64,000 nucleotides of DNA, from NCBI GenBank assembly GCA_043821645.1, contig JBDRCO010000043.1:64001-128000 (forward strand), read 5' to 3'. Of this stretch, positions 13,201-16,435 are shown one piece after another. Every line of letters begins with the position of its first letter. Within the stretch, counting starts at the first letter, position 1. The stretch comes from Pseudomonadota bacterium. Lineage in GTDB: Bacteria > Myxococcota > JACRCW01 > JAFGSX01. Under the pieces are notes generated by a model. That model saw nothing but the letters and a program-made list of their open reading frames with translations, had not been told where the DNA came from and did not search any database. The translations under genes and the position numbers were made by a program.

Positions 13201-13796
13201 GGCTTGTGACCCTCGACCCCGAAGCCAGCCAGGCGCGCCGCGGTCTCGATCTCGCACAGCACCGTCGACGGAGTGGCCGCTTGCCCCAGAAAGCTGTCGA
13301 CGGGAAGCGCCAGGTGAAAGCGCCCCATTTCCATCTCCACCGGAATGCTCAGCTCGACCTGGATGCGCTTTTGCTCCCCGGCGCGCAGCGGGAACACCGA
13401 GAAGCTCTGGATGTTGCGCTCCGCGGTGAGCAAGGCCGTGCTGCGACCCGCGGCCGCGGCAGCGTGGTGAGCGGCCTTGGCCTCGTCCTTCTCCTTGAGC
13501 TCGGCGCGCACCAGGCGGCCGTCGGAGTAGAAGCCAAAACCCGTGACCTGGGCGCCCTCGGGCAGCAGCAGCTGGTAGTCGGCCTGCCCAAGCTCCTCGC
13601 CGTCGTTGGCAAAGATCTGGGTCAGCTCGACGCGAGCCTCGTTGCCTGAGATGCGAGCGCGAATGGCCTGGCTCACCAGAGGCAACTGGCGCGCGGTGGT
13701 GAAGAGACCCGCAGGCCTGTCCTCCTGGGCAAGGGCCAGAGCGCAGATCACAAGGGCGACCACGACGACGACGGGGCGCGCGGTGTGGCGGTTCAT
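10203..13796 (-). CDS. Secreted VIT-domain / vWA-like / beta-propeller protein
   Basis: N-terminal VIT-like segment (ARVELTQIFAN..LPEGAQVTGF), DGSPS MIDAS-like motif, C-terminal LWLGSEGGL/LYAGTKEGL/LFIGTYDSG propeller blades. Confidence 0.7.
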   Translation of the reverse strand: MNRHTARPVVVVVALVICALALAQEDRPAGLFTTARQLPLVSQAIRARISGNEARVELTQIFANDGEELGQADYQLLLPEGAQVTGFGFYSDGRLVRAELKEKDEAKAAHHAAAAAGRSTALLTAERNIQSFSVFPLRAGEQKRIQVELSIPVEMEMGRFHLALPVDSFLGQAATPSTVLCEIETAARLAGFGVEGHKPQVLARSPQRVSLALSASTPLDLWWNEEMPPLMTRAAAVSLIEGEAEEGARHGVQIQVALYDGGEWRAPYTSLHLLIDGSPSLRRRGASLRTLIERVLDQSPVPVELHVVGERLLQNLDGENPDTLVRALQDQPWVATSASDLERAAQRLGCGLSEVRCALVTDPQLPDLAELARSELRTILLADAHEAAFFADQVPANAALFQTEGDAPAKLLQLADQITLPVLLVQGIRQAGRDLRLIGSPALQVAEGGLLRLHALLDELGPLTVRLDIEGHEIERHIAITTPEPGSDAAASVQRSVYGRLLASWMQTYRAEPDAALKQRIIQVSLRERIPTAFTSLHAVDPELSVAATLPGDPVLTVHGEPGLVEVVAWYPFGEKRRLVHDPELDTFTDRFLVPRGWSATFYRIEVFKHFDDGRVELAHAFYQIDERGPQASLLFEPEQGLLSVVTGDETPAVASVIIHGDDKKALTLSPVGQSWLVAIADLPAAFTVYVRDRAGNRSAFACRRQGDELEVQAVQQSLPEPTGKVLAVPARMHSVSGLSLDGDELVLTTDRGPRRFSNHGLNLRSLELSSQLASGRDEILLGTEGGDLLRLSCRDARCTARRIAGVDLHHAVTGLEPLGNGRVLVAVLGQGLYELRGQRLRRSALRVGSRFVTALARHDDTLFVGTAYTGLWQVRGRRAVRTRFAHKHVMGLWSTAHGLEVHSGFGRFVRDDRGRFNAVDSALDNVRRGAPDLSHALHHDGALYVAGLDSGLFRVDGQELTGVAPGLNPMQRRLNVLASHAGLLWLGSEGGLLAVDTRQDRVVRTVLDEVAVHDLVSTAQGLAVASARGLYLLKADDVLQRLDAQSALGSRSFMAVAEVEGQLYAGTKEGLFVVEDAGLDAITAAQGFGVNWVTSLRAHDGSLFIGTYDSGVHRYDGARVEPIAGLEAQWVPPQGLSIVDGTLWVGGLGMPAARVDAAGQVEHLSLPVRDVNAVIEHRGELLVLTSHGLARLGNGR

Positions 13797-14785
13797 GATG
13801 CACCTCCGAACTCGACGCGAATGGGAGTGGTGATGGGCAGGCAGCGATCGAGCAGGTACTCGGTGGCGCCGCCCACGCCCTGGGTCAGGTGCAGGCGAAG
13901 CTGCAGGTCGTCGTCGCTGGCCTCGAACACGGGAGCGCCGGCCAGGCCCGTACCCTCGGGCAGCACCAGGCTCACGGTGCAGGGCGCGCCGGTGGCCTTG
14001 CTGTGCGCAGCGTCGAGCCCGCCGTGATAGACCAGCACACCCGGAGCGTTGAGCGTGTCACGCCTGTCCACCTCGCGCGCCGTCACCGCGGTGCGCGGTG
14101 TTGGCTCGGGCTCGCGCGCCAGGGTGCGCATCATGGCCTCGGCCACGCCGCTGGTCTGGGTGCTGACGCGACCTATGTGTTGGTAGCTGCCCTCGCTCTG
14201 GTACGCGATGCGCCTGAAGAAGGCCACGCCCTCGCTGGGCAACGAACGGCAGCCGATGGCGTGGATGGCCACCTGCCTGTCGTGCGCCAGCTGCACGATC
14301 TGCTCGGGGGTCGGGTGCTGGTGGTAGTCGAGGTGCGGCGGCGCGTCGCCGATCAGGAAGATCTGGCGCTCGGTCCCCACACTGCGATCCCAGTTCATGC
14401 CGTTCAGGGCCACGTGCAGGCCAGACAGCACGTCCTCGGGGCCATCGCCGCCGCCGTCGGCCACCAGAGCGGCCAGGAAGCGCTGGCTCTGCTCCACATC
14501 CTCGGTCAGGGGGGCCTGCTTGGTGACGTACTGATCGCCCTGATCGCGGTAGGCCACGACACCCAGCCGCACCCGTTCCTGGGGACGCGAGGCGCGCAGG
14601 GCCTGACTGATCTGGACCACCCGCTCCTTGACCTCGCGCAGCTCGCCCGACATCGAGCCCGTGGTGTCGAGCACGAACACCACATCGAGGTCGGCGCGCG
14701 CTGGCCTCGCACTCGCCAGCACCAGCACCGCGCCCAGCATCGCCAGGCCCGCCCTCACCGCCGCTTGCCTTGCCCCTGCCTGCAT
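13793..14785 (-). CDS. Secreted von Willebrand factor A domain protein
   Basis: LDVVFVLDTTGSM, GGGDGPE and IGDAPPH motifs. Stop overlaps the VIT gene start (ATGA). Confidence 0.85.
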   Translation of the reverse strand: MQAGARQAAVRAGLAMLGAVLVLASARPARADLDVVFVLDTTGSMSGELREVKERVVQISQALRASRPQERVRLGVVAYRDQGDQYVTKQAPLTEDVEQSQRFLAALVADGGGDGPEDVLSGLHVALNGMNWDRSVGTERQIFLIGDAPPHLDYHQHPTPEQIVQLAHDRQVAIHAIGCRSLPSEGVAFFRRIAYQSEGSYQHIGRVSTQTSGVAEAMMRTLAREPEPTPRTAVTAREVDRRDTLNAPGVLVYHGGLDAAHSKATGAPCTVSLVLPEGTGLAGAPVFEASDDDLQLRLHLTQGVGGATEYLLDRCLPITTPIRVEFGGAS

Positions 14786-14963
14786 CGCCCACCTCCTGCC
14801 GCGGATCCGACCGCTGTTTCAGGGGGAAGTAGCGTGGGGCGTGCCAGCCACGCGGCCGCGAATATACGTTGAATGTATTGATGAAATCGCCGTTCCGGCG
14901 GACCCGGGTGTCGGCGTCAGAACACGATAAATGGCTGCGTGATGCTCTTCGTAGATCAAAACC

Positions 14964-14998
14964 AAGCGTTCACGGCGACCGCCGTGGCAGACGCCTTA
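14964..14998 (-). promoter_or_regulatory. Putative SECIS element 2 (after UGA 14999-15001)
   Basis: Minus strand reads TGA TAAGGCGTCTGC CACGGC-GGTC-GCCGTG AACGCTT. 6-bp upper stem, GGUC loop at positions 22-25 from the U of UGA, lower stem AGGCGT/ACGCTT. It could also act as a terminator (TTGGTTTT follows). Confidence 0.6.
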
Positions 14999-15337
14999 TC
15001 AGGAACCGCCCGGCGGGCGCACCGCCGCTCCACCCAGGGCCTGCTGCATGCCCTCCTTGCCCATGACCTGCTCCAGCAGCTGCAGCAGCTTCTTCAGGAG
15101 TTCCTGCAAGCCGTCCTCGCCGCCGCCCTGTGCACCCTGCGCGCCTCCGGCTCCCTGGCTTCCTTGAGCGCTACCTGCGCTCGCGGGAGAGCCTCAGCCA
15201 CCGCTCGCTTTCTTGGCGCTGAGCTGCTCTAGGATGTCCTTCACCTTCTTGACCATCTGCTCGGGTGCCATCTGCGACGGCTTGTGCTTGATGGCCCGCC
15301 GCGCAGCTCCTGCCCTTCCTCCCGCTCCGACTTTCAT
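14996..15337 (-). CDS. Putative small Gly-rich two-helix selenoprotein (113 aa, Sec48 and C-terminal Sec113)
   Basis: GGAGGT RBS 5 nt before ATG 15337. Translation: MKVGAGGRAG...KKASGG-(TGA 15194-15196)-GSPASAGSAQGSQGAGGAQGAQGGGEDGLQELLKKLLQLLEQVMGKEGMQQALGGAAVRPPGGS-(TGA)-TAA. A SECIS-like hairpin follows each TGA. Confidence 0.75.
15157..15193 (-). promoter_or_regulatory. Putative SECIS element 1 (after in-frame UGA 15194-15196)
   Basis: Minus strand reads TGA GGCTCTCCCGC GAGCGC-AGGTA-GCGCTC AAGGAAGCC. Upper stem starts 11 nt after UGA, loop has G22 G23 U24, lower stems GGCT/AGCC and TCC/GGA. Confidence 0.75.
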
Positions 15338-15382
15338 CCCGCACCTCCCGGGCGCAGCCATCGCGCCCTCCGCCTTCGAAGG

Positions 15383-15410
15383 ATATCGCGCACACACACC
15401 TTGAGGTTGC
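15383..15410 (-). promoter_or_regulatory. Putative sigma28 (FliA-like) promoter of the selenoprotein gene
   Basis: GCAAC-N15-CGCGATAT. Same -35 pentamer, spacing and CGATA core as the element at 37816-37843. Confidence 0.45.
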
Positions 15411-15490
15411 TAATATACCAAGAGCCAGTGTCGGGTGTTGTCGCACCACGCGCCGCGAGCCAGGCGCTCGCACGCGCCAAGGGAGGGCCC

Positions 15491-16156: not shown

Positions 16157-16435
16157 ATGAAAGCCAAGTGTGCGATCCTGGGCCTGGTGCTTGCGCTGGG
16201 CTGCGCGCCGCGCCCCGACATCCCGACCCAGGACCTAGGCAAGGACTGCCACAGCGACAGCGACTGCGCCCAGGGCCAGAAGTGCACCTCGTACGCGCAT
16301 CCGAGCTGCGACAACCAGCAGTGTCAGAGCTGCGAGATCGCCTGCGACGCAGACAGCGACTGTCCCGAGGGCTTGCATTGCAACCTGCCACCCGTGTTGC
16401 CGGATTCGGTGGTGAACACCTGCATGCAGGATTGA
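16157..16435 (+). CDS. Small Cys-rich lipoprotein
   Basis: GGAG RBS, lipobox LALGC, two CxxDSDCxxGxxC modules. Confidence 0.7.
   Translation: MKAKCAILGLVLALGCAPRPDIPTQDLGKDCHSDSDCAQGQKCTSYAHPSCDNQQCQSCEIACDADSDCPEGLHCNLPPVLPDSVVNTCMQD

Follow-up and report, generated by a model that had tools for sequence, protein, structure and literature searches.

Does a small bacterial gene annotated as 47 codons end at the UGA that closes it, or is that UGA read as selenocysteine (Sec)? The question arises in a 64,000-nucleotide (nt) stretch of DNA, referred to throughout as the window, which covers positions 64,001 to 128,000 of the forward strand of contig JBDRCO010000043.1 in assembly GCA_043821645.1 (Myxococcota in the GTDB lineage). 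A first-pass annotation, made from the sequence without database searches, had proposed that the open reading frame (ORF) continues on the minus strand through a TGA at codon 48 (TGA48) to a second TGA at codon 113 (TGA113), each followed by a selenocysteine insertion sequence (SECIS). We followed up this proposal by computation, and the sequence evidence suggests that the gene probably extends past one UGA codon, or both, decoded as Sec. We regard Sec at one TGA or more as likely, and we give Sec at both, which would make this a mis-annotated gene for a 113-residue selenoprotein, an even chance of being right.

The elements on which the proposal was built were all found in place, namely, the ribosome-binding site, the ATG, TGA48, 64 sense codons (49–112) between the TGAs and a terminal TGA TAA (Table 1), giving a Cys-free read-through product of 113 residues. 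A stop directly after TGA113 is also what known Sec tails have. The two hairpins were confirmed as well, hairpin 1 beginning 11 nt and hairpin 2 beginning 12 nt after its own TGA, with G22-G23-U24, counted from the U of UGA, in both loops. The expectation that gene callers would truncate the ORF was borne out by a 47-residue call of codons 1–47 in a public protein set (P0003). The candidate has the ‘star’ layout, in which Sec lies 0–3 residues before the stop and the SECIS lies 3′ of it.

We compared the hairpins with the published bacterial SECIS (bSECIS) model. As given in the Fig. 2 legend of PMC13188914, this model has a loop of 3–9 nt, an upper stem of 4–16 bp, a G within the first two loop positions, a UGA–loop distance of 16–37 nt and a minimum free energy of −7.5 kcal/mol or lower. 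Both hairpin 1 (loop AGGUA, 6 bp, spacing 17 nt, −9.5 kcal/mol) and hairpin 2 (loop GGUC, 6 bp, spacing 18 nt, −9.3 kcal/mol) agreed with it. The SECIS model test suggested by the first-pass annotation thus gave the expected result for both hairpins, but the model, in our own implementation, was only weakly specific, being passed by 102 of 1000 sampled ordinary gene-end TGAs (10.2%) and by 4 of the 6 Sec sites checked. False SECIS-like structures rise with G+C content, according to PMC12013277. The lower stem of hairpin 1 can be extended over 15193–15149, and the loop, AGGUA, is similar to that of the verified Prx SECIS of this genome, AGGCU; the arms of the hairpin trace back to repeated copies of AGCGC[A/T], which is self-complementary. 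The outer stem of hairpin 2 spans 14996–14964 and is followed by UUGGUUUUGAUC; together they may double as a terminator.

Narrower geometric classes were also counted. A perfect 6-bp stem with a loop of 4–5 nt and GGT at nt 22–24 was found after 15 of 157,534 TGAs. Only three of these 15 come after 60 or more open codons with a third-position G+C content (GC3) of at least 0.8, namely both TGAs of the candidate and the one that ends an FmdB-family gene. With a GGT loop of 3–5 nt starting at nt 20–23, perfect 6-bp stems followed 47 of 157,477 TGAs and a single one of 2,612 gene-end TGAs. In a looser GGT-loop class (R3), the next in-frame stop lay at least 12 codons away for 143 TGAs, and only in the candidate ORF (1/143) was that stop a TGA of the same class, against approximately 0.13 expected by chance. 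Doubles in the loosest GG-loop class occurred at about the chance rate (5/791). Local shuffles produced the hairpin class with a frequency of 1.3e-4 to 2.2e-4 at site 1 and 1.3e-4 at site 2. When the linker peptide was kept and codons were drawn from genome usage, the value for site 1 increased to 5.2e-3, because Ser-Ala codons are self-complementary. A chance origin of both hairpins is improbable, with an estimate of about 4e-4 to 7e-3 doubles after coding frames per such genome.

The capacity to decode UGA as Sec was clear. The Sec machinery of this genome is complete, with selD (387.7 bits), selB (256.3 bits), selA (531.3 bits) and tRNA-Sec (78.6 bits) all above their cut-offs; the tRNA-Sec has a UCA anticodon, SelB has the winged-helix domains wing_2 and wing_3, and selD is itself interrupted by an in-frame TGA (GAG-U-ASKL). 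In the AhpC, Prx, DsbA-like and glutaredoxin-like genes, a Pfam domain extends across the TGA. This organism can read UGA as Sec and has at least five verified selenoprotein genes; all of the sel genes for which a search had been proposed are present, and a refutation of the candidate by missing machinery fails.

The GGTC loop of hairpin 2 served as a control within this genome, which we denote G000. Among its 45 perfect 6-bp GGTC-tetraloop hairpins, 13 have a TGA 18–37 nt before the loop start, and four of these TGAs end a coding-like frame, namely those of AhpC, the tail of a UXX-star gene, the tail of an FmdB-family gene and TGA113 of the candidate. All three sites other than the candidate are genuine Sec sites, and two of them are C-terminal tails with the SECIS behind the stop. 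The UXX-star gene is the glutaredoxin-like gene (G000:C37, TGAs 243916 and 244093, locus L053), which matches NF041114 over its full length (111 bits, cut-off 72); its tail reads GYGGS-U-GV-stop, and its second SECIS, with a GGTC loop, lies behind the stop. The FmdB-family zinc-ribbon gene (PF09723, TIGR02605; G000:C63:77846-78075, L055/L056) ends in GGSSGFS-TGA-GGC-TGA, with the GGTC loop at nt 22–25. Its counterparts in two other genomes, G001 (L057) and G015 (L061), share the Gly/Ser-rich-TGA-GGN-TGA ending and a GGTC loop at the same distance (nt 21–25 over the three genes), on stems that differ (CGCGGC, GCGGCC and CTCCCC in G000, G001 and G015, respectively), whereas the remaining FmdB members, which carry no such hairpin, have Cys-x-x-Cys-His/Gly/Arg endings and stop codons of various kinds. 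These sequences suggest that the FmdB gene ends in a C-terminal Sec tail of the form -U-G-stop, with its SECIS on the 3′ side. A check for a peak of TGAs at the canonical distance before GGTC hairpins gave 4 in three offsets versus approximately 1.9 expected, numbers that are too small to carry weight. Four more TGAs after coding-like frames, at C87:219136(+), C134:105887(+), C136:20152(−) and C85:1401(−), are followed by perfect 6-bp GGT-loop hairpins but were taken to be chance, their downstream codon scores being 0.0 or lower and negative in three. Of the two candidate hairpins, hairpin 2 has the better case for being a SECIS. The di-selenocysteine reading of the first-pass annotation gained from this comparison, in that the hairpins are similar to genuine SECIS elements found in this genome, where a known family also has a C-terminal Sec served by a SECIS behind the stop; for the candidate itself, Sec decoding is a proposal.

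Other in-frame TGAs were noticed in this genome. The codon-score screen marked C112:7306(−), C132:42988(+), C3:122618(−) and C51:147244(−), which correspond to AhpC, Prx, DsbA-like and a weak HesB-like case. In addition, TGAs with coding-like flanks at C68:266952(−) (RYC-U-GD), C51:96011(+) (GS-U-GC), C36:42751(−) (TQ-U-GC) and C134:1729(+) (IW-U-AC) may represent further selenoprotein genes.

To score coding potential, we used codon log-odds trained on 1,930 long ORFs of this genome, for which the median of real genes is 0.63. The candidate reached +0.55 per codon over codons 13–47 and +0.74 over codons 74–112; out of frame, 39-codon windows attained 0.55 in only 0.025% of cases. Codons 1–12 scored −0.83 per codon, with rare codons and a GGA-rich bias in codons 2–12. 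In codons 49–73 GC3 was 0.64, which lies at the 1.2–1.4 percentile of real 25-codon windows. It was confirmed that 6 of the 12 codons from 49 to 60 end in A or T. The RNA-structure constraint offered as the reason accounts for part of these odd codons, but rare codons continue past hairpin 1 and also fill codons 2–12.

Sequence variants pointed in the same direction as the codon scores of the two blocks. Codons 1–47 showed two synonymous and no non-synonymous variants (codon 11 in the metagenome contig L041; codon 36 in L041 and in a separately assembled Logan contig of run X1). A relative at 90–95% identity (sequencing run X7) had two synonymous changes and one Met-to-Val change within codons 95–104, against 10 listed changes in the non-coding interval 14886–14964. 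Over the whole ORF, the strain variants amount to four synonymous changes versus one conservative change. The TAA after TGA113 reads TAG in the X1 variant, so that a stop is retained. Based on its codon score, the homologue P0005 described below and the strain variants, the C-terminal block is under selection, as far as sequence comparison can tell. TGA48 is present in the X1 contig, which differs from the window at 3 positions in 504 nt, while runs X2, X6 and X7 do not reach it; no RNA run was listed among those holding the sequence. An assembly error, which the first-pass annotation had asked to have excluded, is thus opposed by a separate contig, though one possibly from the same sample.

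The 1345-bp contig L041, source of the strain variant P0002, was set aside as evidence on TGA48. It is 98.4% identical to the window until position 15225 and then continues into unrelated DNA of lower G+C content (L041 563–1345); it is probably an assembly chimera. The protein encoded by positions 563–1345 of L041 resembles a radical-SAM activating enzyme and is missing from this genome. A tandem duplication as the origin of the ORF was likewise not relied on: the N- and C-terminal halves of the product scored 44 against each other, compared with 26.2 ± 4.4 in shuffles (6/2000 reached it), but BLASTP of the halves gave nothing and their DNA likeness was reached by 64 of 500 shuffles.

Relatives were sought at several levels. 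An exhaustive protein search over 1.84 billion representatives gave four matches, comprising the 47-residue call itself, P0002, a 2282-residue repeat protein, which was set aside as compositional, and P0005. The latter, 39 residues long and encoded on a 4,082-bp NCBI contig, is 62–69% identical to codons 74–112 and has the same end point as TGA113. With the read-through product as the query, a six-frame search of 61 relatives recovered only the window itself below E 0.0048. A word-indexed protein search confirmed 1 of 165 candidates of near length (P0002) and none of 1164 longer ones, a search in which short homologues of the first 47 residues may remain unseen, proteins below 62 residues not being covered with the N-terminal half. 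With a C-terminal profile, the same kind of search at near lengths found only P0005 among 22 candidates. None of the 594 pattern matches in a metagenome scan and none of the 364 in genome-contig scans was confirmed, and a degenerate pattern had no matches in the latter. Against 401 genomes of the phylum, the C-terminal profile recovered the window and two weak partial matches. No full-length homologue was found in these six-frame, protein and phylum-genome searches, and the arrangement with two TGAs is seen in one genome only.

The divergent neighbour of the candidate, a gene for a 150-residue partner protein (Table 1), opened another route. Partner homologues occur in 13 of the 401 genomes, including a paralogue in this genome, and five of them (G000 C68, G001, G034, G142 and G150) adjoin a small Gly-rich ORF of 73–84 residues. 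The aligned products (alignment A3) share the layout of a Gly-rich start, a helix, a Gly-rich linker, a second helix and a short tail. The candidate resembles this family weakly by hhalign (P 0.0012, probability 19.7%, and P 0.0028) and by BLASTP (E 0.033 versus the G001 member; E 2.7 versus the C68 member), and the A3 profile does not recover the window at E ≤1e-4. It shares with the A3 proteins the position beside a partner homologue, the same architecture and, as noted by eye, the short motifs LGGAA, GGAQG and L-x-x-LKKL; it differs in that they are 73–84 residues long, Met-rich and uninterrupted, with neither Sec nor Cys. On these likenesses in sequence and position, the candidate is a probable, very divergent member of the small Gly-rich two-helix family. 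In that case, the linker of the candidate would derive from a translated sequence, with TGA48 at a place where the relatives have Gly.

The pairing of a small Gly/Met-rich protein with a gene of approximately 150 codons, seen in the window and at G000:C68:108489-109451 (further loci L070, L074, L075 and L076), is conserved, and the small protein was found in 5 of the 401 genomes. The two genes point away from each other in G000 and G001 and run in the same direction in G034, G142 and G150. In the ESM Atlas, the small G001 protein had only composition-like neighbours (harpin-like, score 0.79), and the partner protein gave nothing usable.

Several observations weigh against Sec decoding at this locus. 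Almost all known selenoproteins have Cys homologues, as stated in PMC12013277, but no homologue of the candidate has Cys or TGA at either Sec position; the first-pass annotation had proposed to look for Cys or a TGA with a hairpin there, and the uninterrupted, Cys-free, Gly-rich linker of the five A3 members is, in form, one of the outcomes that it had listed as refuting its reading. The stop is TGA in four of these five ORFs and reads TGA-TAG in two, and the four downstream folds examined (G001, G000 C68, G034 and G150) showed no SECIS-like hairpin. The fold z-scores of hairpins 1 and 2 are ordinary (−0.96 and −0.80 versus dinucleotide shuffles), so that this part of the SECIS test lent no support; the rare-geometry classes were set after the hairpins had been seen, and the site was picked from a very large scan, both of which weaken the rarity figures. 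Besides the window, only the X1 assembly spans TGA48, and because that run may represent the source sample itself, it offers no independent proof. Codons 49–63 score −0.52 and codons 64–73 score 0.0 before the score returns to +0.74 in the same frame, whereas values of +0.32 to +0.75 were obtained for the 12-codon stretches behind five Sec codons of this genome that were checked, four of them verified and the fifth in the weakly supported HesB-like gene, and +0.59 for the Gly linker of the paralogue. Finally, a GAGGA-N4-TTG stands at the border of the C-terminal block, and the only close homologue, P0005, spans that block alone, with its ATG at the block border. These last points make separate translation of the C-terminal block from TTG77, giving a 36-residue product, a real alternative. 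In its full form, TGA48 would be the true stop of a 47-residue product, the 36-residue product would carry Sec113 by means of hairpin 2, and hairpin 1 would be a by-product of the Ser-Ala-Gly-Ser-Ala coding repeat. The start is plausible, as GAGGA lies 4 nt before TTG77, which is the sole TTG among the 8 Leu codons of codons 74–112 (TTG makes up 5.6% of Leu codons genome-wide), and such a split would fit the poor codon usage of codons 49–73, the stronger case for hairpin 2 and the repeat from which the arms of hairpin 1 derive. It leaves hairpin 1 to chance, however, although this hairpin has the canonical distance and a GGU loop (chance 1.3e-4 to 5.2e-3 even in context) and requires the rare codons GGT and GCT; moreover, the linker frame is free of stops for 28 codons and the relatives translate their linker. 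We consider a gene split in this manner, with one Sec, unlikely.

An explanation with no Sec at all would take TGA48 as a nonsense mutation, for example from a GGA of the Gly linker, or as the natural end of a small ORF, and TGA113-TAA as an ordinary tandem stop, with hairpin 2 terminator-like and hairpin 1 a product of chance. The Gly-rich, Cys-free relatives without internal TGA, the two that end TGA-TAG with no SECIS-like hairpin seen behind them, the ordinary z-scores and the 10.2% pass rate of gene-end TGAs all agree with this explanation, as do the four GGT-loop matches elsewhere that look like chance and the size of the scan. In addition, UUGGUUUU follows hairpin 2, and a weak terminator is conceivable, but the terminator scan called none. 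Two independent rare hairpins, at approximately 3e-4 each, would have to coincide in the only double of the genome, and the other three GGTC-loop sites after coding frames are all genuine Sec sites. A pseudogene is disfavoured because the block after TGA48 is conserved in P0005 and its variation is mostly synonymous, indicating that it is still translated. The absence of Sec altogether therefore appears rather doubtful to us. That the frame is no gene, only a chance open frame in GC-rich intergenic DNA, is very improbable. Long open frames are common at 69% G+C, and scans of the candidate ORF with Pfam and NCBIfam gave no family; against this stand the codon scores of +0.55 and +0.74, at a level seldom reached out of frame, the protein homologue P0005, the four synonymous variants versus one, the more variable non-coding flank and the position kept beside a conserved partner gene.

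If read-through with Sec does occur, SelB with Sec-tRNA(Sec) would bind the GGU loop of hairpin 1 while the ribosome sits on UGA48, 11 nt upstream. Sec48 would be inserted in the flexible linker, and translation would proceed through helix 2. The GGUC loop of hairpin 2, behind the stop, would then specify Sec at UGA113 to complete the chain, with termination at UAA. If selenium were lacking, synthesis would be limited to the 47-residue product or a short one started at TTG77. The two Sec residues might bind metal or form a diselenide, an idea taken purely by analogy from the ‘star’ families, for which metal or substrate binding is suggested in the part of PMC13188914 on these families. A more speculative variant, which we hold to be quite improbable, is a selenium-gated switch that arose from scratch: Sec codons would have appeared at non-Cys positions (a Gly-linker codon and an old stop), selenium would set a 47- or a 113-residue product, and hairpin 2, as a SECIS and a terminator-like stem just upstream of the VWA/VIT operon, could tune operon transcription.

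The E. coli fdhF SECIS provides the G23/U24 numbering and has a bulged U17. The candidate shares with it the upper stem-loop 11–12 nt after UGA and G-G-U at positions 22–24 in the loop, but has no bulged U, 6 perfect pairs and a second element after the stop instead of within the coding sequence. Closer in layout is UXX-star family 1 (NF041114, glutaredoxin-like double selenoprotein), which likewise has two Sec, a C-terminal GGS-U and a GGUC-loop SECIS behind the stop. Members of that family fold as glutaredoxins, carry a U-x-x-T redox motif and extend two residues past the C-terminal Sec, whereas the candidate has no such fold or motif, would have Sec as its last residue (PPGGS-U-stop) and does not match the family model. 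An NCBIfam scan of the read-through product matched none of the ‘star’ families (NF041114, NF041211, NF041212 and NF033934) and gave only one meaningless match (E 0.076, 11.9 bits versus a cut-off of 500). The statement that the candidate resembles no recognized selenoprotein family thus held for the curated family models, none of which was matched, but not for its GGS-U-stop tail, which is like that of the ‘star’ families. The name of KCU-star (NF033934, listed in PMC13188914) implies Sec last before the stop and a SECIS in the 3′ untranslated region, as proposed for the candidate; it differs by its Cys-Sec motif and belongs to the unrelated DUF466 family. The FmdB members of this genome and two others have a comparable Gly/Ser-rich-U-G-stop tail and a GGUC hairpin at the distance of hairpin 2, and the core CGGC-GGTC-GCCG is common to hairpin 2, the G000 FmdB copy and the AhpC SECIS, but FmdB is a Cys-rich zinc ribbon of unrelated sequence. 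Sec forms of the FmdB family (TIGR02605/PF09723), with a CxxU motif, are reported from ocean metagenomes in PMC2398784. The selenobacteriocins (TIGR04081) have an SGUG motif and two Sec, according to PMC13188914; the candidate had no match to that model at E ≤1, and no maturase or transporter gene was present at the two flanks examined.

The candidate ORF sits in a gap of approximately 700 bp between a VWA-domain gene (13793–14785, minus strand) and the divergent partner gene, which begins 153 bp from it and matched no Pfam or NCBIfam family. An Rfam search gave no meaningful match, and a promoter and terminator scan of the locus called none, hairpin 2 included. AT-rich stretches with TATATT-like motifs flank the small ORF at 14786–14960 and 15380–15440 (minus strand) in this genome of 69% G+C; they may be promoters for the small ORF and the VWA/VIT operon, but a consensus promoter scan of these flanks called none. 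Farther out, at 16157–16435 on the plus strand, a Cys-rich open frame of 92 residues (CHSDSDC...CTSYAHPSC...), with sub-threshold Pfam matches only, may encode a small secreted disulfide-rich protein.

Table 1. Positions in the window of the candidate gene, its proposed Sec codons and hairpins, and the partner gene
Feature	Position	Strand	Remarks
Shine–Dalgarno-like GGAGGT	15343–15348	−	5 nt upstream of ATG; direct reading
ATG start	15337–15335	−	direct reading
Codons 1–47, basic Gly/Ala-rich start and helix 1 (PEQMVKKVKDILEQL)	15197–15337	−	
TGA48, context SGG-TGA-GS, proposed Sec48	15194–15196	−	
Hairpin 1, GAGCGC-AGGUA-GCGCUC, proposed SECIS 1	15166–15182	−	nt 15–31 from U of UGA
Codons 49–73, Gly/Ser/Ala/Gln-rich linker, same frame, without stop or start codon	15119–15193	−	
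GAGGA then TTG (codon 77), possible separate start of C-terminal block	15107–15120	−	direct reading
Codons 74–112, helix 2 and tail (LQELLKKLLQLLEQVMGKEGMQQALGGAAVRPPGGS)	15002–15118	−	
TGA113 (proposed C-terminal Sec) and TAA directly after	14996–15001	−	TGA 15001–14999, TAA 14998–14996
Hairpin 2, CACGGC-GGUC-GCCGUG, proposed 3′ SECIS	14971–14986	−	nt 16–31 from U of UGA
Divergent partner gene, 150 residues	15491–15943	+	homologues adjoin small Gly-rich two-helix genes

The decoding mechanism and the C-terminal-Sec layout are already known from UXX-star and KCU-star, as the family descriptions in PMC13188914 indicate. No protein like the candidate appeared in the literature searched on SECIS models and ‘star’ families, a search not aimed at this protein. 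It is a probable new member among the selenoproteins, notable for having no Cys counterpart and for Sec in low-complexity sequence. Nearly all selenoprotein search methods depend on Cys/Sec pairs, according to PMC12013277, and proteins like the candidate would consequently be missed systematically. Within one genome, a GGUC-loop hairpin together with an in-frame TGA after coding-like sequence acted as a filter, four of the four sites being genuine or candidate Sec sites. If the reading with Sec at both codons is true, this gene would represent a new bacterial selenoprotein family with one Sec in a disordered Gly/Ser linker and another as the very last residue, its insertion signal lying behind the stop codon. 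As the relatives have neither Cys nor Sec at the two positions, Sec would have been gained outright in this family, not by replacing Cys.

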